A stretch of 64,000 bases of DNA from the NCBI GenBank assembly GCA_963575745.1, contig CAUYUJ010000115.1:1-64000 (forward strand), written 5' to 3'. The number at the start of each line of letters is the position of its first letter. The stretch's first letter is position 1. The notes under the pieces were generated by a model. The model saw nothing but the letters and a program-made list of their open reading frames with translations. It had not been told where the DNA came from and searched no databases. Shown here piece after piece: positions 716 to 56,039 of the stretch. The position numbers and the translations under genes are program-made. The stretch is from Prorocentrum cordatum (taxonomy: Eukaryota).

Positions 716-1985
716 CTCAATTTCGAGAAACTCCGCGGCCTGGAACTGGCCACGCTGGAGCTTCTCGAAATTCACCGCTAGGGAGCAGGGTGGGCGCAAG
801 TTCGAGAAACTCTTCCGCGGCCTGGAATCTGGCTGCTTGTGAGTTTCTCGACATTCTCCGCTGGGGGGCGGGAGGCGAACGCGATCTCGAAGAACTGCCC
901 CGCTAAGGACTAACGATTGAAACCTCCTCGAAATTCCGCGCCAGGGTCGGGGGCCGCAATGTCGAGAATCTCCTCCGCGGCCTGACATCTGGCTGCTCGG
1001 GAGTTTCTCGAAATTCCCCGCTCGGGGGCGGGGGACGGGCGCAGTTTCGAAGAACCGCCCCGCCAAGGACTGGCGATTGAACGATCCTCGAAATTCCGCG
1101 TCAGGGCAGGGGGGTGCAATGTTGAGAAACTCGTCCTCGGCCTGAAATCTAGCCGTTTGTGAGTTTCTCGGAATTCCCCGCCTGGGGGGAGAGTGCCGGG
1201 CGCAATTTCGAAAGAATTGCCCGCGAAGGACTGGCGATTCAACGCTCTTCAAAATGCCGCGCCAGGGTAGGGGGCCGCAATGCCGAGAGACGCCCCCGCG
1301 TCTGGAAATCTTGCTGTTTCTAAGAGGTTCTCACGATTCCCCGCTGGGGGAGCGAGAGCGGGCGCAATTTCGAGAAACTCCTCCGCGGCCTGAACTCTGG
1401 CCGCGTGGGAGTTTCTTCAAATTCCCCGCCCGGGGGCGGGCGCGATGGGGGCGAGCGCAATCTCGAACAACTGCCCCGTTAAGGACCGACGATTGAGAGC
1501 TCCTCGGAATTCCGCGAGAGGGTCGGGGGCCGCAATTTCGAAAAACTCCTCCTTGGCCTGAAATCTGGCCGTTTGTGAGTTTCTCGGAATCCCCCGCTGG
1601 GGCGAGGGGCGGGCGCAATTTCCAGAAACTCCTCCGCGGCCTGACATCTGGCCGCTTAGGAGGTTCCCGAAATTCCCCGCTGGGGGGCGGGAGGCGAGCG
1701 CAATCTCGAAGAAGAGCGCAATCTCGAAGAACTGCCCCGCTAAGGACTGGCGATTGAACGCTCCTCGACATTCCGCGCCAGGGAAGGGGGGCGCAATTTC
1801 GACAAACTCCCCCGCGGCCTGAAATCTGGCCGTTTGGTGAGTTTCTCCCAATTTCCCGCCTGGGGGGCGAGGTGGGGGCGCAATTTCGAGAAATTCCCCC
1901 GCGGCCTGAAATCTGGCCGCTTGGGAGTTTCTCGAAATTCCGCCCTCCCGTCGCCCCCTCATGGGATATCGTGGAGTTTCTCAAA
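716..1985. repeat. Minisatellite of alternating ~75-80 bp units with internal inverted repeats
   Basis: Recurrent gcaatttcgagaaactc...ctgaaatctggcc...gagtttctcgaaattcc, alternating with gcaatctcgaagaactgccccgctaaggactggcgattgaa. Confidence 0.85.
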
Positions 1986-3103
1986 ATTGCTTGCTTGAGG
2001 CTTATTCTCCACAATTCCACTTTGGCCTGATCATCGGCCTGCAAGAGGAGTTTCTGGAAATCCGGCCGCGGCGACAAACAGAAGTTTGAGGCACTCCAAG
2101 TCAGCATGATTGCGGGGCTGCAGATGAGTGTATCAGAATATACGTTGAAGAAGGGATTCCCAGAAACGCCTCCTGAGCCAGGTGCCGGGCACGCGTCCTC
2201 TCCTCTTTCCCCGTCTATCCCCTCCCATCCCCCCTCACCCCACGCCGCTTGGCCCTTCCTTCTCCCCCCTTCCGCGCCCATCGTTTCCTCTCCTTCCCTT
2301 CCCCCCCCCCCCCCTCCGTCCCTACTTCCCTTACCTCCATCCCCCCCACGCTGTCCAGAACCCCTCCCTCCATCCCCTCAATCCCTCCACACCTTACTTT
2401 CCCAACTCCCTCCCCTCCCTTCCCTCCCTCCCCTCAGTTCCACCTACTTCCCTACATCCCCTCCTTCCCTCCCTCCCCTCCCCTCCTCCCTACTCCTCCA
2501 AACCTCCTTCCCTCCCTCTCCTCCTTCCTCCTTCCCCTCCCCGTGCACCTCCTCCCCTCCTCCCCCCGCCGCGGGCGACTTGTGTGCACTGTGCTGCTTT
2601 GTCGTCTCCCGAGGTGTCGTCGCTCCTCGGCCCGGGAACGGCACGGCGCATCGTTTCTCCGCCCCTCAGGGCCGAAGTACTATTCACCGTGCCGCGTTGG
2701 AGCGGAGCCTGAAGTCAGTCATGACATGGTGCGGTTGTCGCTGGAAAGGTAGCGTGCGAGCGGCCCGCTTGTTACGCGCTGACCCCCCGTTTGGGGGAGA
2801 GCATGCGCCGAAGAAGCCCTGGCAGGGTAGCGTGCACAGGGGGGCCATCGCAGGGGGATCCTCTCACAGGGATAGCGTGTTGTTTCGGAGATCGATGGCG
2901 CACGCCGTCTTTCCAACGCCAACCGTACGGTGCATATGTGCCGTTCTCGTACCCCCTTCCCGCCCCATCCGCCTTCCCTTCCCTCGTGCATCCACGCGAG
3001 AGTCGGCAGGGAAACCCTGGTGCCCGAACGCGGCCAGCACCGCAATTCGACATGTTGGCGCTCGGTTTCACCTTGCTCGCCCGCCGTCCGGCGCTAGGCT
3101 GAA

Positions 3104-3259
3104 GTCGGGCATGTTCCTCTATAGAAGGAAGATTTTTAAACAATGGCAAAAAATAGTTAGGGAACGATTTTTCAATTCTCCCGATTCCTTTTTGGAGTAC
3201 TTCTGGGGTACGTTCCAGTTCCAGTACAAACCTTTTGCCTGCAGGGGGACGTGCCCGAC
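3104..3259. mobile_element. MITE-like element, family C (second copy 12222-12374)
   Basis: Imperfect TIR gtcgggcatgttcctctatag / ctgcagggggacgtgcccgac around an AT-rich core; same ends at 12222-12374. Confidence 0.65.
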
Positions 3260-3350
3260 CCAACGCTGACCTTCTGCGTTCCTTCGCTCGTCCCTCCACG
3301 CCCTCCGCGCCGCCGCTCGCGCTCCAGGGGGGGGGGCGGGGGAGGACGAG

Positions 3351-3382
<32 letters not shown>

Positions 3383-3868
3383 GGAGGAGGAGGAGGAAGG
3401 AGGATGGAGGAGGAGGAGGGAGGAGAGGAGGAGAGGAAGAGGAGGGGGTGGGGGAGGAGGGGGAGGAGGGGGGTGACGAGGCGGCCGGAGGAGGAGGAGG
3501 AGAAGGAGGGGGTGGGGAGGGTGGAGGTGAGGAGGGGGAGGAGGCGGCGAGGAGGCGGAGCGGAAGGCGGCGGAGGAGGAGGAAGGAGGAGGAGGAGGTG
3601 GGAAGACGACACGCGCGCTGCGCTCCGCCGCGCCGCCAGGCGGGGGGGGGGAGGGAAGGCGCCGGGGGGGCGCGATCGCCTCGGCCGGCGCGTGGGGCCG
3701 AGGGCCGGTGCGCCGGCGCGGGCCAGACTTTTTTTCTCGCGCGGCTCCAGGGCAGCGGTTGAGCCTGATGGGCGGTTGAGGGCGGGAAGGAGAAAAGGGG
3801 CGAGAGGGAGGCCCAGCTGCGAGGGAGGAAAGGGGCGAGAGGGAGGGAGAAAAGGGGCGAGAGAGGGA

Positions 3869-4070
3869 GGGCCGGACGAGAGGGGGGGATTGGGAAAGGG
3901 GGGGGGGTCGAAACCTGCTGCGTGCAGCTGATTTTTGGCTTCCCCGAGGGGCCCATTCCTCGATATGCATGGCCGCCTCCGGCGCCGGGAGGCGCCGGGA
4001 AAATCAGCCACGTGAGCTGAATCTCCCCCCCCCCCCCCCCTTTCCTATCCCCCCCTTTCGCCCGACCCGA
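3869..4070. mobile_element. MITE-like element, family A (copies ~21118-21315 and 63100-63282)
   Basis: TIR tcgggcc/tgggcgaaagggggg...ccccccctttcgcccgacccga; conserved core ggccgcctccggcgccgggaggcgccgggaaaatcagc in three copies. Confidence 0.8.
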
Positions 4071-4559
4071 AGGGCGGAAAGGAGAAATGGGCGAGAGGGA
4101 GGCCCAGCTGCGACGGATCGCCAGCGCTGCTGGGATCCGCTGTGTGGGGTGCCTCGGGGAAGAGGAGGCGCCATAAACACGCGCTTTTGGCGCTCCGCGC
4201 GGGTTTCTTGGATCCGCGCTGGGCCCCCCCGGGCGGCGCCTCCGGCGCCGCCCCTGGCGCGCGGAGCGCGCCAGGGGGTGGGCTCCCGCGCGGATCCCAA
4301 AAATCCGCGCGGAGCGTTAAGTTTATGTTTCTGGTGTTTATTTGCTGTTTCCTTCTTCTGCCTCTAGCGCTACAAGTGGAATAGGGGGCGATGCGCGGAT
4401 GCCACGGCTGGTTTGTCGGGGCCAACCTGGCTCTTAGAAGTGGGTTGCAGGTGCCAGGAGTAGCTCAGGGGGTGGGGTGGCATAACCCGGTTAATGCTTA
4501 TATCCCCTTCGGAACTCAGGGCATATGTAGCATTCAATAGTTTTGGAGGGACCTTCAAT

Positions 4560-36178: not shown

Positions 36179-36197
36179 GCAGCCGTTTTGGGTCAAG
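36179..36197 (+). promoter_or_regulatory. Relict DinoSL / trans-splice acceptor of P1 copy 1
   Basis: gcagccgttttgggtcaag vs DinoSL 3' part gtagccattttggctcaag (16/19), after a pyrimidine tract. Confidence 0.75.
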
Positions 36198-36261
36198 CAG
36201 GTCGAGGCTCACGGTCTAAGAGAGGCCCCGGCGCGAGGTAAGCAGCGCACCGCGATCCGCC

Positions 36262-36621
36262 ATGGCGGAGGTGGCGGCGGACGAGGTGCCCCAGGCCGAG
36301 AAGGACGAGCTGTTCTGCGCGTACGCGGCGATGATCCTCAAGGACTCCGAGCTGGAGGTCTCGGAGGAGAACCTCACGACCCTCATCAAGGCCGCCGGCG
36401 GCTCCATCGAGTCCTTCTTCCCCGCTCTGTTCGCCAAGATGTGTGCTGGCAAGGACCTGGAAGACTTCCTGAAGTTTGGCGGCGGCGGGGGGGCTCCGGC
36501 TGCCGGAGGAGGCGGAGGTGGCGGCGGAGGTGGCGATGGACCGGCGGCCGAGAAGAAGGAGGAGAAGAAGGTCGAGGAGGAGGAAGAGGAGGAGGACGTG
36601 GACTTCGACCTCTTCGGCTGA
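36262..36621 (+). CDS. RPLP1: 60S acidic ribosomal protein P1, copy 1 (119 aa)
   Basis: ELFCAYAAMILKD N-domain, FFPALFAK, Gly/Ala hinge, acidic tail KKEEKKVEEEEEEEDVDFDLFG; strong GC3; gccATGg context. Confidence 0.95.
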   Translation: MAEVAADEVPQAEKDELFCAYAAMILKDSELEVSEENLTTLIKAAGGSIESFFPALFAKMCAGKDLEDFLKFGGGGGAPAAGGGGGGGGGGDGPAAEKKEEKKVEEEEEEEDVDFDLFG

Positions 36622-36971
36622 GGGCGCGCCGTGTGCCCCAGGGGTTCCAGGGCCTACACTTGCGCGCGGGCCCACCTCCCCGCTCCCCGCCATCCCCATC
36701 CTTGCCTCTGCCGACCCTCCCTCCTCTCTCTGGCATCCCTTCCTGCCTCCCTCCGCCCTGCCCTGCCCCTCCCTCCCTCCGTTCGGACGGCTCCCTCATA
36801 CATCTGTTCCGCCCTCCCTCTCCCACCCCCATCCATCCTTATTCCATCGCTCGTCACTTCCCCACCCCTTCTCCCTATGTTGCCTCCCCTTTTAGATTCC
36901 CCCATGCATCTCGTCTGCCCTCCCTGTCTCCCAGCCGCCTCCTCTGTCGTCCGTCACACATACTTCCTCCC

Positions 36972-36992
36972 TTCGTAGCCTTTTGGCTCAAG
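36972..36992 (+). promoter_or_regulatory. Near-complete DinoSL copy
   Basis: ttcgtagcc-ttttggctcaag vs DCCGTAGCCATTTTGGCTCAAG; a second ttggctcaa at 37021-37029. Confidence 0.8.
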
Positions 36993-37130
36993 GGGGCCCG
37001 CCTCCTCAAGAAGGCCCAGGTTGGCTCAAATGTTCCGGATGCTCGACAACGGTCGAGGGTCTCGAGAAGGCGTTGTTTTCTCGAAGCGTCGATCAAGAAT
37101 TGCGGTCGGACCAAACAATGAAGCGCAGCA

Positions 37131-37860
37131 ATGCGGTTGCTCTGCGAAGGAATTCGAGTAGGTGCGCAACTCGTCCCAAGCCACTACGTTGCGGCTGTCA
37201 GACCATGCAGAAAAGGCGGCCAATGGCAACTCGCGCTGTCAGTACTGAGCGAGATGTTGGAAGTGAAGCTGGAGCCCGACATCATCTCTCCTACAATAGC
37301 CGGGTCCGCGCGTGCGGTGCCCAGCGCAGTGGCAGCGAGCCGCCCCCCCCCGGCCGCTTCGGGGTGGCCGTCGGGGTCGCCTCGGAGCCTCTGGAGCGGC
37401 TCCGATCTGGAGCGGCTCCGATCGCGCAGCGGACGCTCCGTGACTGCCGAAGATCCGCTCCAGACGCCCCCAAGACGGCCTCAGGACGGCTCAAGACGCC
37501 CCCGAGTTGCCCCGAGAGACCTCCGAGCGGGCCCTTACGACGCAAAAATCGTCCCATTCCCTTCGTAAAACGTAAATGTTTGGAGAACAGATGTGGGAGG
37601 TGAAGCTGGAACCCAACGTCGTCTCTACTACAATGCATCAGCTACAACGCTGGGATCAGCGCGTGCGCGAACGGCGAGCAGTGGCAGCTCGCTCTGGCGC
37701 TGCTGAGCGAGATGTGGAGGCTAAGATGGAGCCCGCCGTCATCAGTTACAACGCTACAGCGCTGGGATCAGCGCGTGCGCGAAGGGCGAGCAGTGGCAGC
37801 GGGCCCTGGCCCTGGTGTGCGAGATGCGAAAGGCGAAGCTGGAGCCCGCCGTCATCTCTA
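37131..37860 (+). pseudogene. Frameshifted pentatricopeptide-repeat (PPR) gene remnant
   Basis: CRKGGQWQLALSVLSEMLEVKLEPDII, MWEVKLEPNVVS, SYNAGISACANGEQWQLALALLSEM, GISACAKGEQWQRALALVCEMRKAKLEPAVIS spread over several frames. Confidence 0.85.
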
Positions 37861-37899
37861 TTAGAATGCACCGTTCACCGCTAGCCAAATGGGCGAGCA

Positions 37900-39030
37900 G
37901 TCGCCGTGGACCGGCTCCCTCTGGCGGCCACTGGCGCGGCCCGGGGGCTCCGGCGCGTTTCCAAGATGGCTTCAGAGCGCTCCGAGCCGCCCCTGGAGGC
38001 CCCCCCAAGAGGGCCCGAAGACGGCCGAAGACGGTCCAAGAAGGCTTCCGAGACGTTCCGAGCGCTCGGAGACGCCCAAGATGGCCGCTCGACGGCCCAA
38101 GAGGCTTCCAAAATGCTCCAAGTGGGCTCCAGAGAGAGCCCCAGGAGAGCCCGAACAAGGACAAATCGCCCCAATCCTGAGGGGAAACGTACATTTCGGG
38201 AGTTCCCGTGCTTTTCGTCAACGAAGCGTCCAAGACGGCCGCACAGGCCCTCAAGATAGATCGCCACAAGACGCCTCAGGAGGCTGCCAGGAGGGCCCCA
38301 AGACGGCTCAACACTGCGCCAGGACGGCTCCTCAGACGCAAATGGCGGCCAAGAGGGGGCCAGGACAGGTTGGGAGCGCTCCCGAGGGGCCTCAGTGGCC
38401 CCGGCGCGCGCTTCCAAGATGGCTTCAGAGCGCTCCGAGCCGCCCCCGGAGGCCCCCAAGAGGGCCCGAAGACTACCGAAAACGATCCAAGAGGGCCTCC
38501 GAGACGGGCCCCGAGCACTCGAAGACTCAAGTGGCCCCCAAGACAGCCCCACGGAGGCCCCAGGAGCTGCCCAACAGGCACCAGAGCAAGCTCCAATACG
38601 GCCCGCGACCCCCTGCATGGCCCCAGGACGGCCCAAGAGGCCCCCGAGATGGCCCAAGAATGCCCCGAAATGCCAAGATGCCCCCCCCAGAGGCTCCGGG
38701 GAGACCCCCACGAGGGCTCGAAGGGGGGCCGAAGGGAGTCCAGACGACGCCCTTCCCGCAGCCCCACTTTGCCAAGAACCCTCCAAGGACCACTCCCACA
38801 TGCCCCAGAGCTCCCAGGAGAAACTGATGGTTCTCACGGCGCTCCCAAGACGAGTGCCTCGAGCCACGGCACCTTTTCGCCGTCTCTCGAACCCCAAACG
38901 CCCCCACGCAAGCCCCATACCCCCAAGGCAGGCCCCAGACCACTCCGAGGTGCCCCAGAGCCTCCCAAGAGACTCCGATAGTCCCCACAGGGCTCCTAAG
39001 GGCGGTCCCAGGGGGCGCTCCGAGATGCCC
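37900..39030. repeat. Low-complexity cccaaga-rich dispersed repeat (also ~35900-36110 reversed, 54745-54930, 55400-55900 reversed)
   Basis: Recurrent ggcccccaagag / gatggcttcagagcgctccgagccgccc motifs. Confidence 0.7.
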
Positions 39031-39525
39031 TAGAGTCGCCCACACGACTCCGACGCTTGCCAAGAGATCCTCGTCCCTCATCCCTCCTTCTCCACTACGG
39101 AGTGCGCGCGCGCGCGAAGCCCCTCGGCCAACCAAGAACCTTCTCCACTTGTGTTCCGCCTCCCTCTCTCTCGCCTCTCGCCCCCCCTCTACCTGTCGTC
39201 CTCCCATTCCTCCCTCCTCGACCTACCTTTCCTCCTTCTCCCCCTCCGCTCCTTTTCTCTTCGCTTACTTCCCCTGATCCTCCTGCTCCTTCGTATATTC
39301 AAACTTCCCCGCCTCAGCAGACACCCCCTTCTCATCCTCCTGCCCATCCTCGTTGTCCACCTCCTGTTTTCCTTTCCTCGTCGCTCAACCTCATCCCCCT
39401 TTGGCTCCTCACCATGATCCTTTCGCGTCCGCATGACCATCCTTCCCTTCCTTTGGCTTTCCTCCCCCCTTTCTGGCGCCATCTTTTCCCCCCCTCCGCG
39501 CGTCCTCCCCGCTCCGCCCTCATGC

Positions 39526-39544
39526 GCAGCCGATTTGGCTCAAG
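39526..39544 (+). promoter_or_regulatory. Relict DinoSL / trans-splice acceptor of P1 copy 2
   Basis: gcagccgatttggctcaag. Confidence 0.75.
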
Positions 39545-39603
39545 CCGGTCGAGGCTCACGGTCGAGGCCCCGGTGCGCGGTAAGAAGCGCACCGCGATCC
39601 GCC

Positions 39604-39960
39604 ATGGCGGAGGTGGCGGCGGACGAGGTGCCCCAGGCCGAGAAGGACGAGCTGTTCTGCGCGTACGCGGCGATGATCCTCAAGGACTCCGAGCTGGAGG
39701 TCTCGGAGGAGAACCTCACGACCCTCATCAAGGCCGCCGGTGGCTCCATCGAGTCCTTCTTCCCCGCTCTGTTCGCCAAGATGTGTGCAGGCAAGGACTT
39801 GGATGACTTCCTGAAGTTCGGCGGCGGCGGGGGGGCTCCGGCTGCCGGCGGAGGCGGCGGCGGCGGAGGTGGCGATGCGCCCGCGGCCGACAAGAAGGAG
39901 GAGAAGAAGGTCGAGGAGGAGGAAGAGGAGGAGGACGTGGACTTCGACCTCTTCGGCTGA
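39604..39960 (+). CDS. RPLP1: 60S acidic ribosomal protein P1, copy 2 (118 aa)
   Basis: Same protein with E>D changes, one fewer hinge Gly and DAPAAD. Confidence 0.95.
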   Translation: MAEVAADEVPQAEKDELFCAYAAMILKDSELEVSEENLTTLIKAAGGSIESFFPALFAKMCAGKDLDDFLKFGGGGGAPAAGGGGGGGGGDAPAADKKEEKKVEEEEEEEDVDFDLFG

Positions 39961-40469
39961 GGGCGCGTCGCTTGCCCGAGGGGTTCCTGGGTCTAAAATC
40001 TCGCGCGAGCCCTCCTCTCCTCTCTCTGCCATCTCCCTTGCCTCTGCCGTCTCTTCCTTCGCTCTCTGCCATCACCTCAGAGGTCTAGGAGGTGGGACTT
40101 CTCAGAAGCCCTCGCGCCTGCAGAGAAGCTGCCTGTGTCTTTGGAGAAGGCCCAGAAAACTTCTCAGAAGGGGGGGGGGCCGATCCCTCTGAGGAGGCCC
40201 GCCCTTTCTCACCTCCCCCCCCCGGCTCGCCGCCGACTCACGGGGGGGGGCTCCCCCTCCCCCGTCCTGTCGCCGCTCCACGCCTGCGGCGTGCGTCGAT
40301 CAGGCAGCGTAGATTGGATCGGACGACGAGGAGGAGGAGGAGGAGGAGGAGGAGGAGGAGGAGGAGGAGGAGGAGGAGGAGGAGGAGGAGGAGGAGGAGG
40401 AGGAGGAGGAGGAGGAGGAGGAGGAGGAGGAGAGAGTAGGAGGAGAGAGGAGGAGGAGGAGGAGGAGGA

Positions 40470-41357
40470 GAGGCAGGAGCTCCCTGCCTGCCCCCCCCCC
40501 ACACCGCGGGGAGCCTCCGCGCTGCTCCTCCCGTGCTGCCCTCTGGCCACGGTTGGCTGGGGCGCAGGCGACCGCCCGCGGGGTGCCGCCCTCGGAGGCC
40601 CGTGCGCGGAGCCCCCCTGGGGACGGCGGCGGGCCCTCCACGGAGGCGCCTCCGGCACCGCTCCTGCTCGTGCCGCGCCCCGGGGAGGAGGAGGAGGAGG
40701 AGGAGGAGGAGGAGGAGGAGGAGGAGGAGGAGGAGGAGGAGGAGGAGGAGAGGAGGAGAGGAGGAGGAGGAGGAGGAGGAGGAGGAGGAGGAGGAGGAGA
40801 GGAGGAGGAGGGAGGAGGGAGGAGGGAGGAGGGAGGAGGGAGGAGGAGGAGGAGGAGAGGCAGGCGCTCCCTGCCTGCCCCCCCCCCCACACCGCGGGGA
40901 GCCTCCGCGCTGCTCCTCCCGTGCTGCCCTCTGGCCACGGTTGGCTGGGGCGCAGGCGACCGCCCGCGGGGTGCCGCCCTCGGAGGCCCGTGCGCGGAGC
41001 CCCCCTGGGGACGGCGGCGGGCCCTCCACGGAGGCGCCTCCGGCACCGCTCCTGCTCGTGCCGCGCGCCCGGGGAGGAGGAGGAGGAGGAGGAGGAGGAG
41101 GAGGAGGAGGAGGAGGAGGAGGAGGAGGAGGAGGAGGAGGAGGCGGAGCTCCCTGCCTGCCCCCCCCCCCCACACCGCGGGGAGCCTCCGCGCTGCTCCT
41201 CCCGTGCTGCCCTCTGGCCACGGTTGGCTGGGGCGCAGGCGACCGCCCGCGGGGTGCCGCCCTCGGAGGCCCGTGCGCGGAGCCCCCCTGGGGACGGCGG
41301 CGGGCCCTCCACGGAGGCGCCTCCGGCACCGCTCCTGCTCGTGCCGCGCGCCCGGGG
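40470..41357. repeat. Three near-identical ~210 bp GC-rich units separated by (GAG)n
   Basis: ctccctgcctgccccc...cctgctcgtgccgcg at ~40480, ~40867 and ~41148. Confidence 0.9.
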
Positions 41358-42401
41358 AGGAGGAGGAGGAGGAGGAGGAGGAGGAGGAGGAGGAGGAGGA
41401 GGAGGAGGAGGAGGAGGAGGAGGAGGAGAGGAGGAGGAGGAGGAGGAGGAGGGAGGAGGGAGGAGGGAGGAGGGAGGAGGGAGGAGGGGAGGAGGGAGGA
41501 GGGAGGAGGGAGAGGAGGGAGGAGGGAGGGAGGAGGGAGGAGGAAGGAGGAGGAGGAGGAGGAGGAGGAGGAGGAGGAGGAGGGAGGAGGATCTCAAGCG
41601 AAACGACCGTCCGGGAATTGCCACCTGGGGCTCCGGCGTCGCCCCAAGAATGCGCACCGGGGCCCGAAATCGACGGCCTTCGCGAGCCCTCTCCTCGTCC
41701 CCTCCAGCGCTGGCGGTCTGTCCTCGAGAGCCGTCGCAGCCAGGGAGCGTCCGGACCCTCCAGGGGTCGTGGCCCCTTGCTAAAATCAAGTCGGGTCCGA
41801 CGCTTCCGCCGCCAGCTCAGGAGCAGCAGATGGATGGCAGCACACCAATCCAATCAAATTCATCCTGACTCCCTCCGCCCTGCCCCGTCCGTTCCTCCCT
41901 CCCTCACTTCTGACAATTCCCTCCTGCCTCTCTTCTGCCTCGTTAGCCCCACATGCTTCCTGCCTTCTTGCAACCTCTTGGATCCCCTCTTCCTCCGTCT
42001 CGTCCTCTCTCCTCCTGGAGGCAGTTTCCTCAGTGGAAATGAGCCGTTTTAGGGGCATATGCAGAGGGAGCTTGCAGGGATGGTTAATTCCAACATCGTT
42101 GAGACTCTTGGGTTTACACTGGTCCTCCTCCTCCTCATCCTCCCTCCTCCCTCGACCACCAACTCCCATCCTTCTCTCTCCTTCCTCCCTCCTCACTCGT
42201 CGAGTATTCATGATCCCAACTCCCTCCTCCCTTCTCCTTCCTCGTGTGCCCCTCCTCCTTTGTCCCTCGTCCCGCCCCTCCCCTCTCTCTCTATATATAT
42301 ACTTCGTTATCGTTTTTGTGTCTCTCCCTCTCTCTCTCTCTCTTTTGTTGTTCTCTCTCTCTCTCTCTCCCTCTATCTCTTTTTTGTTGTCTCTCTCGTT
42401 C

Positions 42402-42435
<34 letters not shown>

Positions 42436-42797
42436 CTCCCTCCTCCTTCTTGCCTCCTTGGTCCTCCGCCGTGGCAGGTCCTCTACCTGCACCTTGCCTT
42501 CTTGTCCTTTTCCTTTCCTTTTTATCCTTTTCCGTCTCCTGATCCTCATTATCATTTCCCCGCCTCCTCAGCAGATACGCGCTCCTAATCCTTCTCCTAA
42601 TCCTGGTTGTCCATCTCGTTTTCCCTGTCCTCGTCCTGTTCCTCCTCTCCCGCCCCCTCCTGACCATCATCCTCATCCTGCATCCTCGTCATCCTCATTG
42701 CCTGCCCTCACCATTCCCCTCATCATTCCCCTCCGCGCGTCCTCCCCGCTCCGCCCTCCTCTCCTTCCGCATCCTCCCCCTTCTGACCTCCGCACGC

Positions 42798-42816
42798 GCA
42801 GCCGTTGTGGCTCAAG
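42798..42816 (+). promoter_or_regulatory. Relict DinoSL / trans-splice acceptor of P1 copy 3
   Basis: gcagccgttgtggctcaag. Confidence 0.75.
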
Positions 42817-46115: not shown

Positions 46116-47519
46116 ATCCAGCCACCCCCCACCGCCCTCCCCGGTTTGACCCCCCCCATGGAGGGAGGTGGTGCCCGGTTAGAGAAGCCGATATTTTGGG
46201 AGGGACAGGGGGGGAGGGGTTCTCCGGGCGCGCCGCCAGAGGTGCGGCCCGCCCCCCGGTTCCGGCGTGTTCAGGGTTCTCTTCGCGGCAAGCGTCCACA
46301 GCACGGGCTCCCTTCAGCGTCCAGAGACCTCTTTGGAGTCGACGCCCGGAGCCCGAAGGGGTCTGCCCCCCCCCCGGGGTGATTTGTTGTCCACGACGCG
46401 AGCCTCACCCCACGCGCGCGCTGCTCTCCGCAGCAGCTCAGAGCGTGAATTACCTACCCCGCTTTCGCTTCCAGGCAAAACCAAGTCATAAGTACCACGC
46501 GCCTCCTCGTCAAGCGGCCTGACCAGTACAGGCCGTAGTTTGGCATCGCTTGGTGTCTCTTGGAAGCGAGGGTGGTCAAAAGCGAGGTAAGTTTGTTTGC
46601 CCCCTCAGCCATTCGGGGCGCTTGTAACCCACTTATTAGCCAGGTTGGGCCATATATAACCCACCTTGGCATCCACGCGTAACCCCCCTATCCACTTGAT
46701 AACCCCCACGGTCATCCCAGCGCGCGCGCGCTGCCCTCCGCAGCAGCTCGCCCGCGGTCGGGCCATCGGCTGCCCGGGGGGCGCCGCGGCCGCGATGGGG
46801 GCGCCCGCGCAGGCCGGCGCGGCCGCGCCGCCGCCGGAGGGCGAGGCCCTCGGCCCCCGAGGCGCGGAGCGGGCGCGCAGCTGCCCTCCCAGGGTGTCCG
46901 CGGTGGTGGGCCCGTGTTCCACCACCACCACCATCAGTTGGAGGGGGGAAGGGGGTGGAGGACGAGGAAGTGGAGGACGAGGCGGAGGAGGACCTAGAGG
47001 AGGAGGAGGAGGAGGAGGAGGAGGAGGAGGAGGAGGACGAGGACGAGGACGAGGAGGAGGAGGAGGAGGAGGACCTAGAGGGAGGAGGAGGGAGGAGGAG
47101 GAGGAGGAGGAGGAGGAGGAGAAGGAGGAGAGGAGGAGGAGGAGGAGGAGGAGGAGGAGGAGGAGGAGGAGGAGGAGGAGGAGAGGAGGAGGAGGAGGAG
47201 GAGGGAGGAGAGGAGGAGGAGGAGGAGGGAGGAGGAGGAGGGAGGAGGAGGAGGAGGAGGAGGAGGGAGGAGGAGGGAGGCGGGAGGAGGAGGAGGAGGA
47301 GGAGGACCCCCTCCCCCTCCAACTTCTGGTGGTGGTGGTGGTGGAAGACAGGCCCGTCACGCGGGGGTTGCTGAGGGGATGAATTTGCTGAGCCCCTCCG
47401 CCGCTGTGTCTTTCCTCCGGTCCTCGCTCGTTCGCCTTTTTTCTCTGGCCTTCGCTCGGTCCCGGTGCTGCAGTGGGAGCCAGCGCTTTTGATTCCAAAC
47501 CACGTCCAAGCACAGTGTC

Positions 47520-47762
47520 GAGGGGATAGGTGGGCTTTGAGCAGATGCCACGGTGGCCAATTCTGACCCAACCAGGCTTATCAGTGGGTTGCAGGTGCCC
47601 CAAGTGGCTGAGCGGGGTCAGCGATCCAGGCTGAGCGGGCTCCGCCCACTTAGCGGACTTATCTGACCCCCGTAGCCACTCGGGGCACGTGTAACCCACA
47701 CATAAGCTAGGTTGGACGAGATCCAACCACCTTGAGATCCTCTCATACCTCCATCTCCCCTC
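47520..47762. repeat. Long imperfect palindrome / foldback element (arm also at ~4372-4470 + and ~46600-46700 -)
   Basis: ccaaccaggcttatcagtgggttgcaggtgccccaagtggct...ggggtcag pairs with ctgacccc...agccactcggggcacgtgtaacccacacataagctaggttgg. Confidence 0.75.
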
Positions 47763-48825
47763 ATCAAAGGCCGCGGTGATCCCAGTCGCGCCTCTCAGGC
47801 GTGTTGTTGGAGCCGTTTGGGGGTCTGAGGTGGCCCAGCACTGCTTCTGGCCAGCAGGAAGGGCGGGCAGGTTCGAGGTTCTGGGTTCGGACATGGGTTT
47901 TGCCTTTATCGGCCTTTGGGGGCCGTTTTCGGGCCCTGGAACCGGGAAGAACGGATCCGGGGTGAAAGACTGCTCCAGATGGACCCCTCCCGGCAAGGGT
48001 TCGGCAAGGAGCAGGCGAAGGACGGCACTGTGGGGGCTTTCACCACCTGCATCACAGCCCCACGCGACATGTGCGAGCAACTCCTACGGAACTCGGGACA
48101 CGCCAGCATCTTTTTCACGATGCTCGCAGTAGATCGGCTCGCGGTCAAGACCAACACGGTGGAGTGGATCGAGAGACCGGAGAGCTCTACGAACATGCAA
48201 TACTACAACCACGTCAAGGCCGCAGCAGCCCGCCTTGAATCCAAGCCCGCCCTGGTCCACCGACGCGGCAGCGACCAGTGTCTCGGCCTCTTGAAGACCG
48301 GCGACCCCAAGACATCGCCGCCATACATTTGGAGGGCCACCGTCCCCAAGTGGTGGGATGCGGACACCCTCATGAGCTTCTTGACCGACAACGGGTGGAC
48401 GGAACCCGTGGCGCAGGTCCAGCTGCGAGGTGGGACCTGGCGGATCCGGTGTTCAGCTCGCCCAGATCTCGCCACATCCTACATCTACAGCCTCGGCGAC
48501 TCAGACACCGTGCGCCTCCTACCGGCGGTCCGGGCCCTCGTTCAGCCCACGACCGTGCAGGTCCGCTCCAGGCCGGTGTTCCCGTGGCTGGAGCCCCGCC
48601 AGACCAACGCCGCGAACCCAGGCAGAGACGGCGGCGAACCCAAACAACCACCAGGCGCCGGGGCAGCAGCAGCACCCGACTCCAAGCCTGAGCGACATGG
48701 ACCAGAGCACCAGCGAGAAGCGGCCTCCTCCACGACAGGGCGTCGAGGACCCCAAACGCCGTCGCACCGCTGACGGCGGCGTGACCTTCGACTCAGCAGC
48801 AGGGCCCTTCGCCGGTCTGTGCACC

Positions 48826-49240
48826 GTGGAGGCTGGCGGGCGGGGCGCGTGCGGGTACGCCTCTCTTTGCGCGGCCTACCGCCTCCGCAAAAAGTGCCAG
48901 GAACAAATCGAGGTTGAGGCAATGCTCAAGGAAGCCCGCTCCCTCCGGGCCAAGACCGTCGCTGAACTATGCACCCATAGGCCCGTCTACGAGGAGGTCT
49001 TCGCCCCCGAACCCGACGAGCCGCAGACGTGGGAGGCCTACATCGGCGAGTGCCGCAAAACTACCACATGGATCGACGAGCTGCAGCTGTTGGCCGCAGC
49101 CGCTGTCCTGCAGCGCACGGTATGCGTCTGCTGGCGCACTGGGCCGCTCGAGCGCTGGAGCTGGCGCACCTTCCACAAAGACTTCGCGAGCACGGGCGTC
49201 CTCGTCATCTACTGGGACGGCAGCCACTACCAACCGGTGC
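48826..49240 (+). CDS. OTU-like cysteine protease domain
   Basis: GGRGACGYASL (Cys 48850-52), LRAKTVAEL, WEAYI, WIDELQLLAAAAVLQRTVCV, YWDGSHYQPV (His 49225-27). Confidence 0.8.
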
Positions 49241-49994
49241 GACCCCCCTCGGCCAACTACTCCTGGCCGGAGTCGCTCTTGTCCGACAACGGGTCCGTCT
49301 TCCCACGCAGGGGGCGGGGCGGCGCCGCACCCTCCGACGCCTTGCCGGCAGCCCCTGACGAGGCCGCCTCCTCGGCCCCGACCTGGATGGACCCACCGTC
49401 CCGCTCTGGCGACTCACGCCTCCACGGCGAGGCTACGGCCCCGTCCCTGCAGAGTTGGATGGGCCCTGGCACGCCCCACGACCCGAACATCGCCGCAGGC
49501 AAAAGGTGGAAGCAACACCACCGCGACGACGCCGCGCTGTCGCCTCCCTTCTGGATGGACAGCGTCACGGGCAGACCGCCGCCCACGACTACCACCGCTC
49601 CAAGGGCAGGGCCCTCCCCGGCCCCGGCCCCATCCGACAGTCGGGCACCCGTGCCTGGCAGTGAGGCAGCAACTGCGTCGACGGCGCGCCTCCGCCTCCG
49701 ACGCAAAACACCGACGACCGGCACCCGCGCCTCCGCCGCCGCCCCCACCGCCGAAGCCACCCTGGAACGCACGAAGGGCGCCCTGGACTTCGAGAATGCC
49801 GTGTACCACTGGACAGAGCAGTTGCTTACTAAACGCGCATGCCGTCTCCCACCGACGCCGGCACAATACAACAAGCTAAAGTTGCCGCTCTTGCTTGGCT
49901 CGACTCCCACCCCGGAGAAGAGGTGGCGCCAGCGGCCAAAGCCTTCTACGACACCATACGAGACGTACGATATCGGTACGCTCGCCCTGGCGAC

Positions 49995-50380
49995 GGCAAC
50001 ATATGCGATCGATGTGGATGGGTCCCACCAACAGGCATTGCTCCGAGGGCCGCCAAAGGGCTCTTCCACCACCACCGCCGCGACTGCCGCGGCTGCACGT
50101 ACAAGCAGGCAGAATCCGACAACAAGCTCGGCCCGGATGCGCGTCGCACCGTGGCGGCCTTCCTGCAGAAGAACAAGCAGGCGGCCATACAGGCGGGGCA
50201 CGAGCGGAACCTGCGTCAGAGGATGGCTCGCGCCCCCGAGGCTCTCCAGAACGCCGCCCACGACCTCGACACCACCGTGCCGTACTTCGTCTCCGAGTCC
50301 GGCGTCAACAGGTACAAGTTCCAGTGTAAGCACTGCCACCGGAAGATGAAGCGTGCCGACGCCTTCTGTGACCCGTGCGT
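49995..50380 (+). CDS. Two zinc-finger-like motifs
   Basis: CDRCGW...HHHRRDC and FQCKHCH...FCDPC. Confidence 0.6.
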
Positions 50381-50732
50381 GCAAGCACCAGCACCCATCA
50401 GCTTCCAGGAGTTCCACCTGTTGCTCTGGAAGCATGGCCTTCGACATCAGGAAGTGCAGACCGCCGAGGCCCTCAAGGCCAAGGTCGCACGCTGGAGGCC
50501 GCACTCTCTGAGGTGAAGGTGCCCGCGACGGTCATGCAGGCCCCGGGTTTGGTGGACCCACGCCTGCAGGGTCGGCGAGGCGGCCAATCCAGGCCCGCCT
50601 GCGCACCGACGCCGTTGCGGGAACCACCGACACGCACCCACCACTACAGGCGACGACAGTCGCACACAGCAGCTCACCACTCCCACTCCAGCTTCCGACA
50701 TCGGCCCGTCCCCCCACAGAGGGGCCCGCCAG

Positions 50733-51410
50733 GTGGCGGTCACGGTCTGGCACTCGAACGTGCAGGGGGCCCCGAACCAAGACGACCTCAGGAGTGCTCT
50801 ACGACACGCGACCCGCATGGACGCCGACGTCGTAGTGCTCACAGAGACTCACTGGGACGAGACGCGTGCGAAGGAGCGCGTATCCGCGCGCAGCAAGTTC
50901 GGCCACGCATTCGCAACGGCCTCTCACACGACCACTCCGAACACAGCGGGCGTGGCCATCTACGGTCCAGCAGGCATGCGTCGCGATCCATGGTGCTGGC
51001 CCACCTCCCTACGAGGCTGGGTAGCATCAGCAGTGCTTCGCGCCGGCTCAACGGACGTCTTGATCATCGGAGTGTACGGCCACTCCGGCACCAAGCGGGC
51101 ATCGAAGGCCGGCAGGGCCGCTCTCGCAGATGCTCTCGCCGTGCGCGCTGCTGCCGCCGACCTACCCACAGTCATGATTGGGGATTGGGATGCCCCGCCA
51201 GACGACGACGACTATTCTTCCCTCGCGGACTTCACCATCGACCACCGAGTTGTGGGCCACCTGGATGCCCCCACGCATACTGGCGGCAGGTGCATCGATT
51301 ATTCACGCAGCCGCAGTTTGACGACACTCGATGCCAAGCTCGGCCCACCTGTCTCGGACGAGCTTTCAGCCAAGAGTCCATCCGACCACGTCCAACACTG
51401 CACGGAGTTC
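50733..51410 (+). CDS. APE-like endonuclease domain
   Basis: WHSNVQG, VVLTETHW, AGVAIY, IGVYG, MIGDWDA, PTH..GRCIDY, SDH. Confidence 0.92.
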
Positions 51411-51963
51411 GCCGTGGGCGCCGACGCCGACGTCACCTCCCTACGACGCCACCACCCGCTGGCACCTCCCGCCTCCAAAGCCTTGTGGTTGGAAGCATGG
51501 GAGCGCGCGGCCACCACCACGCGCCTCGCCGAGGCGGCGGCCGGGCACGACCCGAGCACGCATTGGCAGGCTTGGTCGGACACCCTGGAGCTCAGCGCCG
51601 GCGTCCCCCAGCACAGCCTCACCAGGTCCGACGGCGACGACGTGCGGCGATGGACCAAGGTGTGGAAATCTGCCGCGGACCACGCCAACACCGAGGAGCA
51701 CCGACAGCCAGTCGCAGAACGGCGACTCCGACGCGTCTACCGGCGCCTCCTGCAGTACGACAACATCCAGGGCGAGGACGCGGCACTCAGCGCCTCCCTC
51801 GCCAGGAGCCTCGGCTCCCTGGTTTCCGACGGCTGTATTCCCCACCCGGCCACTTACGACGACGCCGTCTGCAGCGTTCGACGGGCCATCCGGGCCTTCG
51901 AGGAGGAGGTCATCCAGTCCCGTTTGAACCAGTGGAGAGAGACACCAACAGCAGCATCATTCC

Positions 51964-54225
51964 ATGACGTCTGCCTACGCCTACGTCCGCAACGCAGCCA
52001 ACGCCCCCCCCGCGGCCGCAACCGATCCAACCTCGGGCCGGCTCTCCGGGGGATGCGCCGCCAGCATGACCGCAGCCAAGCGCGCCTGGGACGCCAAGAT
52101 GGCCGCTCCCCCAGACACCTCCAGTCTCGACCAGTATTTCGCCGAGGCCGCCAGATACGTGGCCCCAGTCCGACCGTGCGTGGAGTGCGGCGGAAAGCGG
52201 CACCTCGAGTGGGACAGGTTCACCGTTGCAGGCCTCAAGGCGGCAGCATGTGGTTGCCGGGGCACCGCGGCCGGGCCCGCGGACTACGACGCCGATTTCC
52301 TGCTCTCCATGCCCACGCCTGCGTGGCAGCACCTGGCGGACCTCGCTGACATGATCATGGGCGCGGGCATCTGGCCGGACGCGCTCCGCGCGCAGAACGC
52401 GACCTTCATTCCGAAGATCTCCTCGCAGGGCCTGCGCCCGATCGCCGTCATCCCCGTCGTCACGCGCACCCTGTCGAGGTGCCTTGTTCAACATTACCGT
52501 TTCTGGACCGCCAGGGTCCAATCTACAGACGCGGTCGGGCAGCTGCTCCGGTTCGAGGCCGCCGTCACCGCGCGCATAGCCGACAACCTCCCGACAGTTG
52601 CACGCACCAGTGACCTGGCCAGCTGCTTCAATCACATCGACCCGTCTTTGGCGGAGCGAGCGGCGCTTCTTCACGGCATGCCGGACACGCACGCTCATTT
52701 CCTCTTCGCCGTGAACGTGGACAAGCCCACAATTCTCCGTGGTGGAGAGTGCGCCATGCGCGCCCCACCGCCAGACAACGGTCTTGCACAGGGCGACCCG
52801 AGCTCTCCGCTGGGAGCGGCTGTGGTCGCCGCCACGCACAAGGCAATCTTGAAGAGCACAGTCGACGGCCTGCAGTACTTCGACACGTACGTCGACGACA
52901 GGACGGCCCTGACCAACTCTTTGGAGGCAGACCGACATTATACCCAGGAGGTGGCACGTCTGGACCGCCTCACGGGACAACGCGAAGATCCCAAGAAGGG
53001 CTCTATGGCGGCGGTCTTCCTTACCAACGGCACCGACCGCGCCGACAGCACCCTCCCCCTCCCCCTCCCCCTCACCAACAGTCGCGCCGACAACCACATC
53101 GACACCGACATCGAGGTGCTAGGCATCGTTTTCGACCTTACTGGATCCCGCAACCCCCGCAGCGGCCCGCGCACCGAACGGAGGGCAGGGGAGCTCCAGG
53201 AACGACTCCGACGCATCGCCAGGATCGCCAAAGCTGCCGGGCTCGGGGCCCGGAGGCGCATGGCCATGGTGAGAGCAACCATGTCCTTGTGGCGCTGGGA
53301 CGCTGCGTGGGTCATGGCCGACGACAGGGACCTGCACAGCATGCGCTGCGACATAGAAAAGACCATCACCGGGAGATAAAGACATTGGGCATGGAGGCAC
53401 GGCGGTGCTGTCTGGCTCACCACGGACAAAGGATGGCTCGTGGAGCCCTTCGCGGTGCAGTTCTCGGTTATCATCCGGTGTCTCGTGGAGGCGGCGTGTG
53501 GCGAGGACACCGCGCGCACCGTGGAGCGAGCCTGGACCCACCTGCACGAGCAGGGGCAGCACGGAGGTCGTGCGGACGGATCGTGGAGCTATCGCCTGGC
53601 TGCCCGGATCCGGCAAGTCGTCTCCCGTTTCTGGCAGCCCACAGACAGTCCATGGAAGTACCATTTCGACCATCAAACTTTCGATGTTCGACTTCTTCGC
53701 CAAGAACACCTGGACCACCACGTGCGCCAGGCATGGCGGGCATGGATTTGGACAGATTACCACCGACGGACGCTCCGCAAGGAGGCCGCCGGCCGCGTAC
53801 CAGCGCCTTGCCACACGACCCTCTGCGAGTGGCTGAACGAGCACGCCGGGGCCGACCACGACCGGTTTGCTTTGGCACAGATGTGCGTGATGGCAGCCGA
53901 GCCCAACGCAGTGCGCCTTTCGCATCTGCATCCAGATTGCTTCTCGCGCACCTGCCCCACCTGCCAGGTGGACAACAACACCCACCACATGATGCACGAA
54001 TGTCCGACCACGGAGCCGCTTCGTCGAGCGCACGGGCTCCATTTACCTCTACCACTCCCGGCCGACCTCTCTCAGGCCGAACGGAGCGCTTTCATGCTGC
54101 ATGGTTGGCACGACCACCACCGCCCTCAACTTTGCACTTTGGCGTACCGGGTGCTCAACTACAAACTGGCGGTCTTCCGGCCGTGGCACGCCGCGTGGCT
54201 TGCAGCCGCCGGTTCCGGCCGATAG
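51964..54225 (+). CDS. Reverse transcriptase plus C-terminal CCHC knuckle (internal TAA at 53377-79)
   Basis: FIPK..LRPIAV, DLASCFNHID, GLAQGDPSSP, YVDD (52888-99), EVLGI; same frame continues past the stop to CPTC-x8-H-x3-C. Confidence 0.93.
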
Positions 54226-56039
54226 CAGCAACAATAATTTGATTGCATCTTGTGCATCAGCGACAACAAGTGATTGCATGTTCTGCATCCTCTCAACAAG
54301 TATGCGCTTGTCGGCGCCTTCTTTCAACTATAGTGTTTTCCTTTTTTACTACTTCGAGGACATCAGACATCCTGTTGCAGTCAGAGCCGGCGGGGACCGA
54401 TTTTGAGTGGATTTGGCTTCCCCCCCCCCCTCCTGACGGATCTCCTGAGGCCCCTGCCAGTTCAGACCCCCTGGCCGCCTCCAAACGTGAAGTAATTCGG
54501 CACGATCGGAATGGTTACGGAGAGGATTGTACGTCCATGTTGAACAGGGCTCGCTGTCGACGTCACCGCGGACGTTGAGGGGCGGCTGTCCAACAGCGGC
54601 CGCTTTCGGCCTTGGATCACAGTTGTCGGTGGGCACATTTCGAGCGTCTACATGTAATTTTGGGGCGATGATGACAGTCCAGGGCGCCTCAAGAGGGTCC
54701 CCGAGGGAGACCGCGAATCGACATATCGCGCTCTCCGCCCTTTAACGCCCCCAAGAGGCCCCAGGCGGCTCCCAAGAAGCCTCCAGGAGGCCCCAAGAAG
54801 TCCCCAAGAAGCCCCCCAAAACCCCAAGCAGCTCCCAAGAAACCCCTGAGAGGCCCCAAGAAGTCCCAAGGAGGCCCCCAAAGCCCCAGGAGGCCATCAA
54901 GAGGCACCCCAAGAGCTCCCCCCAGACGCCCTGAGGCACTCCTGACGATCCTCGACGCCGTCCCATCACTGAGTGCCAGTTGCATCTCGTGTCTTGCTCG
55001 CGGGACGACTCTATGGTTTTGTTTGCGCGTCGTCGTCTGTGGTGAGAACTCTAGACGCTTCGCGTAGCCCCGCCAGTTAGGCAGCTTAGGTTCGGCCGTC
55101 GGTTCCCGTGCGCTAGGCAATTTGGCTCGCGCGTAGACCGCCCGACCTCTGACGCTGCTGGCACGCTCGCCTGCGGCCGCGACGAAAAACATAGCCCCGC
55201 CAGTTCATCTAGAAACGAGGCCCAGACGATTTGACATGATCAGGGATGTGGAGGAGAACGAAGCGGACAAAACATGCGTGCAGCAGGCCGATGAGAAAGA
55301 GGAGGAGGAGGAGGAGGAGGAGGAGGAGGAGGAGGAGGAGGAGGAGGAGGAGGAGGAGGAGGAGGAGGAGGAAACGGAGGTGGAGGAAAGGCGAGCAGAA
55401 CGGCTAGAGGCCTCTTGGATGCCTCTCGGATTCTCTTCGGATTTGGTTCGAAAGCTTCTTGGGGTCATCTTGGGGGTTTTGGGGGTATCTTGGCAGCCCC
55501 ATCGGCCTCTGGAGGCGCCTTCGGTGCTTCTGGGGGCCTCTTGGAGCCTCTTGAGGAACTCTTGGGAGCCTCTTGGGGGCATCTTCGGGGCATCATGGGG
55601 GCCTTTGAGCCTCCTGGGCGCCTCTTGGGGCCGCCTTGGGGCTCCTTTGGGAGCCTCGGGGGCCGTTTTGGGGCCATCTGGGAGGACATCGATCCATGGA
55701 GGGGGGCTCCTTTCTCAGTGTCCCTCACCAGGAGGCCCACATGTGGCCAAAACTTTATATCAATCAATGATTTGGCCTTCTCTCCGAGGCCTTTTGGGGC
55801 GTCTTGGGTGCCTCTGGGGGGGCCTCTTGGAGCCTCGTAGGGGCCTCTCGGGAGCCTCTTAGGGACATCTTGGGGGCCGTTTGGGGGCATCAAGGGGCTT
55901 GTCGGGCACCCCTTGGTGCCCTCTTGCTTTGGGGCCATATTGGAGGAGAACGACCATAAGAGGGGCCGTATTATATTGGAGCCCCCCCCACCCGGGAGGC
56001 CCAAATGCGGCCAAAACCCTCGTCCAGGGATGTGGGGTC

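Follow-up and report, generated by a model that had tools for sequence, protein, structure and literature searches.

The 64,000-nucleotide stretch of Prorocentrum cordatum DNA analysed here (the window; GenBank assembly GCA_963575745.1, contig CAUYUJ010000115.1, positions 1 to 64,000, forward strand) carries on its + strand, at 47989-54390, a copy of a long interspersed nuclear element (LINE). The copy is dead and truncated at its 5' end. It probably belongs to a lineage of LINEs with an apurinic endonuclease (APE) and a giant open reading frame (ORF), the product of which would be divided by ribosomal skipping at an NPG/P motif (a slash marks the bond concerned) and by an ovarian tumour (OTU) cysteine protease cutting at GGG sites. 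The copy comprises five stop-free pieces in succession, in two of the three frames of the + strand (~47989-54390), and the order of its modules is tandem RRM-like domains, OTU, an RGG tail, Cys/His fingers, RVGEAANPGP, APE, reverse transcriptase (RT) and a CCHC knuckle:

48000-48640, + strand: ORF1-like remnant with two RNA recognition motif (RRM)-like (ferredoxin-like) domains, the first cut by the 5' truncation (tblastn, alignment, model)
48258-48278, + strand: HRRGSDQ, where most relatives have HRLGGG (alignment)
48799-49299, + strand: OTU cysteine protease/deubiquitinase domain (Pfam PF02338, AlphaFold, Foldseek)
49300-49329, + strand: FPRRGRGG/AA, a ubiquitin-tail-like candidate cis-cleavage site (motif, 28 residues past the His box)
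49836-50513, + strand: Cys/His finger region (CxxC...HHH at 50001-50096; CxxC...CxxC at 50319-50378)
50547-50597, + strand: 2A-like motif VWWTHACRVGEAANPG/P, an instance of RVGEAxNPGP, 45 residues upstream of APE (sequence)
50757-51389, + strand: APE-type endonuclease (PF03372, residues 81-291 of the piece starting at 50517)
52408-52953, + strand: RT core, with YVDD at 52888-52899 (Pfam RVT_1, motif)
53953-54003, + strand: C-terminal CX2CX7HX4C zinc knuckle (motif)

These domains had been named, in the same order, in an earlier sequence-only reading of the region, and Pfam, motif and structure searches bore this out. The element is an APE-type LINE, as that reading had also held: Exo_endo_phos (PF03372; 1.8e-10, 41.4 bits, above the cut-off) lies upstream of RVT_1 and YVDD, APE is N-terminal to RT and contiguous with it in P0025 and L006, and the copies are dispersed and 5'-truncated, as seen in a contig depth gradient and a missing N-terminus. 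The RVT_1 match in the window (1.3e-5, 25.4 bits) falls under the cut-off of 29.6 bits, and that of the relative L006 (32.1 bits) is above it. A phmmer search of the RT against PDB sequences gave no matches at E<=1, and a pattern search built from the RT alignment gave 593 matches, none of which was confirmed. The proposal that the element reads as one chain after repair of its frameshifts held in part; the order is continuous, but read-through of two in-frame stops is required in addition to three frame changes.

The OTU domain matched PF02338 at 4.7e-6 (27.6 bits, against a cut-off of 23.3). Its Cys box, GGRGACGY, lies at 48835-48858 with the catalytic Cys codon at 48850-48852, and all 21 aligned sequences share this Cys. 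The His box, DGSHYQ, lies at 49216-49233 (His codon at 49225-49227); the window and 16 of the 20 further rows have His followed by Tyr, Phe or Trp, a pair that is absent from P0006, P0020 and P0021 and replaced by HH in P0016. An AlphaFold model of the domain had a mean predicted local distance difference test score (pLDDT) of 84.6, with a core above 90. A Foldseek search with this model returned 44 PDB chains at E<=0.001, and the matches listed (ranks 1-50) were all OTU or otubain structures, led by 6w9r (1.7e-6) and followed by OTUD3, OTUD1 and nairovirus vOTUs, with target-normalised TM scores of 0.6-0.75. A Wolbachia OTU and the ribosome-bound Otu2 were also among the matches, many of which had been solved with ubiquitin or ISG15. 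With the OTU piece as query, a full HMMER search yielded only 23 proteins, and a word-index search among longer proteins yielded none.

The closest proteins are three Prorocentrum cordatum 'unnamed protein products', which are 96%, 87% and 69% identical. What the sequence-only reading called ORF1 does not stand alone in relatives: it is fused upstream of OTU, the two lying in one chain and 25-60 residues apart in 8 of the 23 proteins. One protein (P0009, 1426 aa) covers the last part of the ORF1-like module, followed by OTU, fingers, two 2A sequences and APE. The metagenome contig L006 (684-9911, - strand) holds the whole order in an uninterrupted ORF of 3076 codons, i.e., an N-terminal region, the ORF1-like module, OTU, fingers, RVGEAQNPGP, APE, RT and a CCHC knuckle (CPWCENLGHWNHVVWLC) with spacing identical to that of the window, and the domain order of L006 is kept in L055 and L070. 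The finger Cys/His spacing recurs in P0009 and L006, and the finger region of P0009 matches L055 and L070; in Pfam the finger region gave weak, sub-threshold matches only.

The RTs point the same way. With an RT profile for which the window, P0027 and L006 were the seeds, L055 and L070 gave the top non-seed scores. In an RT tree, the window, P0027, L006, L055 and L070 were separated from 11 further motif-bearing LINE RTs (support 100/99), in a tree of 16 rows that is made of metagenome relatives, is unrooted, has long branches and was seeded in a way that favours grouping of the OTU elements. P0027 joins the OTU group by its RT alone, and P0024 and P0025 (near-copies of the window element) and L041 and L029 (too short) were excluded. 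OTU is thus not a separate insertion, because L006, L055, L070 and P0009 keep the order and their RTs group together. A LINE lineage with an integral OTU domain and a conserved NPGP motif is very likely.

Two further features of these contigs were observed. The first ~600 residues of L006, ahead of an LLDGG border, are rich in Trp and Leu, hydrophobic and without a Pfam match, and look like several membrane-spanning segments. In L070 (3138-7709, - strand), Pfam matched ORF residues 1-40 to a peridinin-chlorophyll a-binding protein (PCP, 1.9e-10); this fragment is in frame and is followed by NPGP/HPGP motifs, two in tandem. It means either that the element is inserted in a PCP gene of a dinoflagellate or that it has picked up a piece of such a gene.

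The ORF1-like module was modelled from its L006 homologue. AlphaFold gave two beta-alpha-beta-beta-alpha-beta domains (pLDDT 80-93, residues 80-305), and in VIA-align the best matches of both were RRM domains (Mex67, Z 8.1; TRMT2A, 7.2; PID-3/TOFU-6, 7.1). These matches are middling (Z 6-8.1), with ACT and PII domains scoring alike, and a Foldseek search with the model found nothing at E<=0.001. By its modelled fold, the module is probably RRM-like and nucleic-acid binding.

The motif x-[R/L/S/G]-G-G-G was found 26-36 residues past the His box in 10 of the 14 sequences that reach at least 35 residues beyond that box. Examples are ELRGGG, CLRGGG, LYRGGG, FLGGG, ELSGGG and, in the window, GRGGA. 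Three of the remaining four have G-A variants, and the fourth, which is a distant OTU of cellular type carrying a SEC-C motif, lacks any. Another Gly-Gly motif, LL(x)GG, lies ahead of the N-domain in P0005, P0007, P0011, L006 and L055. At the homologous border, before a GGS..T.RKRK.Q stretch, an NPGP motif is found instead in L010, L016, L070, L106 and P0019. LL(x)GG and NPGP therefore replace each other at this border, and this is the strongest argument that both are separators.

The motif ahead of APE (full peptide at 50547-50597, VWWTHACRVGEAANPGP) fails to match the canonical 2A forms GD[V/I]ExNPGP and GxExNPGP, although NPGP itself is present: Ala occupies the canonical Glu position and a Glu lies one place further from the skipped bond. 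By its recurrence in other sequences, it is not a chance NPGP. A degenerate DNA pattern for [R/S]VGEAxNPGP found at least 120 metagenome loci, against a rough estimate of fewer than 10 expected by chance if uniform base make-up is assumed. All 121 listed matches read Arg, though a quarter of the allowed codons encode Ser. Positions -14 to -10, which the pattern left unfixed, were biased (G/P, L/Y/F, x, G/A, T/C/V), 94 of 105 unique contexts were stop-free over the 25 residues upstream of the motif, and a crude pattern detected an APE-like start downstream of it in 36 of 85 clean contexts. In LINEs the motif stands at a module border, upstream of APE, as 2A peptides do. Among the 20 longest motif-bearing ORFs, Pfam detected RVT_1 in 12, Exo_endo_phos in 6, RNase_H in 5, Phage_integrase in 1 (L062, with the motif upstream of the recombinase), OTU in 1 (L070) and RdRP_1 in 1 (with the motif 580 residues downstream of the polymerase domain). 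Seven contigs of a viral collection contain the motif, and two permuted patterns of the same composition matched none there; two of the seven ORFs had weak, sub-threshold coat-protein matches.

The motif also varies in ways that resemble known 2A peptides. Tandem copies and an Asn-to-His variant were seen in L016, L047 and L070 (RIGEANHPGP), and such repetition and N/H alternation have parallels in known 2As. In P0009, a canonical DVESNPGP and a class-B-like EGVEPHPGP stand in tandem at the place of the window motif. In P0027, which is 31-32% identical in APE and RT and starts ...WKGVRVGEASLPGP, RVGEASLPGP precedes APE. Skipping at the window type of motif is predicted from these comparisons, with a likelihood somewhat better than even.

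The distribution of the motif brought several other observations. In L006 (residues 1935-1953) and many other loci, RVGEA is often preceded at 5-6 residues by Gly-Gly-Tyr (VRLGGYRGT, GQGGYAAT, WGGGYLGV), which could either be one more protease site, serving to trim off what remains of the 2A, or simply belong to the motif. In L011, L057, L061, L062, L085, L091, L102 and L111 the motif stands between IPTDRNMAD..SRG and a conserved segment that Pfam does not assign; read by eye, these are an RNase H-like end and a tyrosine-recombinase N-domain, and the loci look like DIRS-like retroelements using the same separator. L019, which is identical to L127 (ORF 2-4141), is a picorna-like RdRP_1 contig with the motif, present in both metagenome and viral collections, and six further viral contigs (L121-L126) have the motif inside long ORFs.

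The window copy is dead: three frameshifts and two stops break its frame, and nothing can therefore be processed from it. These lesions, and the end of the coding sequence, are as follows:

48641-48745, + strand: frameshift 1, in a low-complexity linker, from the frame of the RRM module to that of OTU (frame comparison)
49831-49835, + strand: frameshift 2, private to the window copy (P0026, from Prorocentrum cordatum, reads ...QQLLTRMPSP... unbroken)
50514-50516, + strand: in-frame TGA, 20 codons before the NPGP motif (sequence)
51939-51942, + strand: frameshift 3, where four additional bases separate ...NQWR from HQQQHH... (P0025 reads NQWRHQQQHH unbroken)
53377-53379, + strand: in-frame TAA, private to the window copy (contigs, P0024, P0025)
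54223-54390, + strand: TAG stop (54223-54225) and 3' untranslated region of ~165 nt without poly(A) (sequence, contigs)

At frameshift 1, RPVFPW ends at 48587 in one frame and DPKRRR begins at 48748 in the next, and relatives read both in one chain; as 8 of the 23 fuse the ORF1-like region and OTU, the frame change between them is most likely a lesion. Frameshifts 2 and 3 are private to this copy, since the gene models P0026 and P0025 read straight across them. At 53377, contigs of two runs have C against T in the window, and P0024 and P0025 have Gln there. Relatives extend ~480-940 residues further at the N-terminus than the window copy, and ~500 of the extra residues are common to several OTU relatives. 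A tblastn search with all 23 proteins against the whole window found no match to this region elsewhere; the copy is 5'-truncated, because the N-terminal residues of its relatives are missing from the entire window. Contigs of four public runs were aligned to the region with a minimum likeness of 85%. Run X1 contributed 1030 of them, mostly at 85-95%, which indicates many diverged copies of a multi-copy element, and the X1 depth climbed from 5' to 3', from 2-5 to ~10 and then ~22.

Intact members carry all modules in one frame of a single giant ORF, up to 3076 aa long. In the scheme put forward at the outset as probable, the ribosome would skip the Gly-Pro bond at NPG/P during translation of this ORF. 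Skipping would free the nucleic-acid-binding and accessory half from APE-RT, giving a one-ORF substitute for ORF1 and ORF2, with the upstream product possibly in excess over APE-RT. OTU would recognise LRGG-like tails, as its structural relatives do, and would cut the upstream half at GG(G) sites, at minimum at its own C-terminal side. It may also act as a deubiquitinase on element or host proteins. Self-processing of the polyprotein by OTU is a tentative prediction from the motifs, with less than an even chance of being right. A broader proposal, in which RVGEAx[N/H]PGP would be a third, uncatalogued skipping class shared by marine protist LINEs, DIRS-like elements and RNA viruses and in which OTU LINEs would self-process with LxGG and StopGo sites interchangeable, is, taken as a whole, somewhat unlikely.

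Both candidate processing signals of the sequence-only reading, a diglycine site downstream of the protease and NPGP before the endonuclease, proved to be conserved in divergent relatives; the NPGP motif is, however, not a canonical 2A, and the diglycine tail is undocked in the model. Several observations weigh against processing at these signals. The RGRGG tail is disordered in the OTU model (pLDDT <50) and lies away from the active site; disorder fits a linker, and the model says nothing on docking and is neutral on cis cleavage. Disordered regions often contain Gly-rich linkers. Not every GGG can be a site, because HRLGGG within the RRM-like module is a confidently modelled turn (pLDDT 81-86) and is not universal, being missing from the window, L055 and L070. 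For the NPGP motif, changing the key Glu is reported to ablate canonical 2A activity, and E-to-S variants from Nematostella LINEs tested inactive (Odon et al. 2013, PMC3708506). In P0027 the Asn is replaced by Leu (LPGP), and in L070 no [N/H]PGP is found between fingers and APE. Many contexts have a Leu-rich stretch upstream, which the window motif does not share, and the in-frame TGA stands 20 codons ahead of that motif. Most of the protein relatives are gene models.

The main rival gives OTU a role in trans, as a deubiquitinase countering quality control where the 2A stalls the ribosome. OTU would then act in trans only, the polyprotein would not be processed and the GGG motifs would be flexible linkers; the enzyme might shield the proteins of the element, or a ribosome that has stalled, from host restriction or from quality control through ubiquitin. 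The structural neighbours of OTU, mostly cellular or nairoviral deubiquitinases and including ribosome-bound Otu2, are consistent with this, as are the undocked tail and the structured, non-universal HRLGGG, and passages of a 2026 preprint (bioRxiv 10.64898/2026.06.17.732966) tie the OTU and Josephin deubiquitinases of ORF2p to relief of 2A-induced protein loss. Against it stand the fixed distance of GGG from the His box, with ubiquitin-like P4-P3 residues (ELRGGG, CLRGGG, LYRGGG, FLGGG) across sequences that are 20-35% identical, and the exchange of LLGG for NPGP motifs at another border in other members; a deubiquitinase that accepts LRGG tails would also be expected to accept such a site in cis. 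A purely trans-acting OTU is therefore given serious weight, at somewhat over one chance in three. RVGEAxNPGP, for its part, might be a docking or targeting-type peptide ahead of the enzyme modules, with the ORF yielding one chain. This would fit its departure from D[V/I]ExNPGP and GxExNPGP at the Glu, its absence from four supplement files of a 2025 2A catalogue and the LPGP of P0027. Against it, the motif borders unrelated modules (before APE, recombinase and N-domain, and after an RNA-dependent RNA polymerase), occurs in tandem and with N/H alternation, has canonical 2As in its place in P0009, and is spread over retroelements and RNA-virus-like contigs in a way that mirrors the 2A distribution; a docking or targeting role is an unlikely explanation.

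Two rivals concern the architecture rather than its use. The TGA at 50514 could be ancestral in a Prorocentrum subfamily with two ORFs, RRM-OTU-fingers and 2A-like-APE-RT, joined by read-through or re-initiation. The gene model P0026 leaves the frame exactly at the TGA site, and its alternative-frame exon, which reads ...SEVKK..., implies the same nucleotides and suggests that the P0026 copy carries the same TGA; nor is there an ATG between the TGA and the APE domain. L006, however, is open across the equivalent linker, four further lesions are present in the window copy, of which two proved private to it, and a shared lesion can also arise by segmental duplication of a dead copy, which leaves an ancestral TGA improbable. 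Alternatively, OTU could be an unrelated gene fragment or a separate insertion, and the architecture a chimera or an assembly artefact, as might be supposed from the single copy in the window and the frame change that parts the RRM-like region from OTU. The same order in the 3076-aa frame of L006, in L055, in L070 and in P0009, together with the grouping of the RTs, contradicts this, and its probability is negligible.

In the usual view, ORF1p and ORF2p of a LINE come from two ORFs, and maturation by proteolysis characterises long terminal repeat elements and viruses. If the proposed scheme is true, this would be a non-LTR element that uses viral polyprotein logic in one frame of up to 3076 codons. 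If RVGEAxNPGP is active, it would widen the StopGo sequence rules, with NPGP kept and the acidic residue moved, and would provide a new marker with which recoding sites could be sought in metagenomic data of protists and viruses. As a fossil, the window copy is of value for pointing to the OTU-LINE family. Arterivirus PLP2 and tymovirus PRO process polyproteins at LxGG-type sites and also remove ubiquitin, and nairovirus vOTU is known only as a deubiquitinase. The element resembles these viral OTU proteases in the OTU fold and in having ubiquitin-tail-like sites beside the protease, whereas kinship is limited to the fold (12-22% identity).

The combination of OTU and 2A had been presented in the sequence-only reading as one that could not be placed among known clades. 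This claim is weakened and the combination is not unprecedented, because the preprint cited above already notes, in one sentence based on structure annotation, a Symbiodinium ORF2p with OTU and a 2A-like peptide and with a second RT at the C-terminus; its text also cites the nairovirus OTU as a precedent for deubiquitinase relief of 2A loss. As described there, the Symbiodinium protein is like the present lineage in its dinoflagellate host and in joining, within a single protein, OTU to a downstream 2A-like peptide and APE-RT, and P0009 may be that ORF2p or a relative. The RRM-like module, GG(G) sites, one-frame giant ORF and RVGEAxNPGP are not in the preprint passages, though its supplements may list such peptides. 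Among titles and abstracts joining non-LTR retrotransposons with OTU cysteine proteases (PMC2836005 included), no OTU-bearing LINE was found, and a search by the full name of the OTU domain gave, among the papers listed, titles and abstracts on cancer or mammalian L1.

According to Odon et al. 2013 (PMC3708506), single-ORF APE LINEs with an N-terminal 2A are found in L1Tc/Ingi, Rex1, L2, CR1 and Crack. The present lineage is like these in that NPGP lies just before APE and one ORF would deliver ORF1-like functions separately. It differs in that the 2A LINEs described there carry GD[V/I]ExNPGP and no protease, whereas it has RVGEAxNPGP and OTU, and in the upstream part, which is mostly a short leader in those LINEs and ~1900 residues here. 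Ubiquitin/SUMO-type cysteine proteases fused to transposition enzymes are also described for Ulp1 in NeSL/Utopia (PMC4640811), the C48 peptidase in cryptophyte Dualen (PMC5029228) and OTU in Ginger1 and Helentrons (PMC2836005, PMC6431247). The Ulp1/C48 proteases of NeSL, Utopia and Dualen have a different fold, and the Ginger1 and Helentron cases are DNA transposons; in contrast to the OTU LINEs, none of these protease-bearing transposons, as described in those sources, has a 2A-type signal or conserved GG sites after the protease. A Dualen-type home was considered and rejected: Pfam found no restriction-like endonuclease or RNase H in the window, and the Dualen protease, as reported in PMC5029228, is C48 and not OTU.

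Class B 2A peptides, as set out by Rao et al. 2025 (PMC12338488), have an invariant Trp at position 16 and EEGIEP[N/H]PGP, and occur in dinoflagellates among others. The present motif is similarly non-canonical with N or H before PGP, the window has W at positions 15-16, and the second 2A of P0009 fits class B as described there. The window motif does not have the class B form, however: its core differs (RVGEAx against EEGIEP), and upstream of RVGEA W is not conserved, with W at -15 in only 8 of 85 clean contexts. RVGEAxNPGP strings were absent from the full texts searched, and four supplement files of PMC12338488 contained 0 occurrences of VGEA, IGEA, GEASNPGP or GEAANPGP.

The limits of the element differ from the 47979..54238 given in the sequence-only reading, and its surroundings contain one further feature:

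47808-47988, no strand assigned: left flank, a highly repeated element hosting the LINE insertion (contig depth and joints)

The summed contig depth of run X1 is 80 in the bin 47808-48061 and 2 in the next bin. Eight joints in contigs of a related repeat fuse 47843-47988 straight to 54391-54457 and give modest support, their sides being only 20-32 letters long. Protein homology to relatives begins at ~48000 (tblastn of 8 proteins), and a contig of another organism tracks the element to 54393 and then diverges. The element was placed at 47989-54390 because the joints, the drop in depth and the start of homology at 48000 agree, with a precision of about +/-25 nt at the 5' end and +/-3 nt at the 3' end. 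It sits inserted within another, highly repeated element, and the ATG at 47979 probably belongs to this flanking repeat and is not the start of ORF1. No poly(A) or simple repeat was seen at 54390, no target-site duplication was seen with the ends known only to +/-3-25 nt, and blastn found no second copy within the 64-kb window.

Extreme-abundance repeats flank the locus at 47300-47553 (X1 summed depth 1696) and 54650-55100 (4101). The latter is a tandem CCCCAAGAGGCC-like unit, and many of its joints fold back on themselves. Just upstream of the flanking repeat, at 46700-47400, there is a long GGA/GAG low-complexity run that reads as poly-Glu, poly-Gly, poly-Arg or poly-Pro/Ser according to frame. 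Further upstream, four spliced-leader-like relics lie at 36183, 36978, 39530 and 42802, all on the + strand and each with 2 mismatches to a 15-base part of the dinoflagellate spliced leader, where 0.1 would be expected; they suggest retroposed or trans-spliced gene copies at ~36183-42802.

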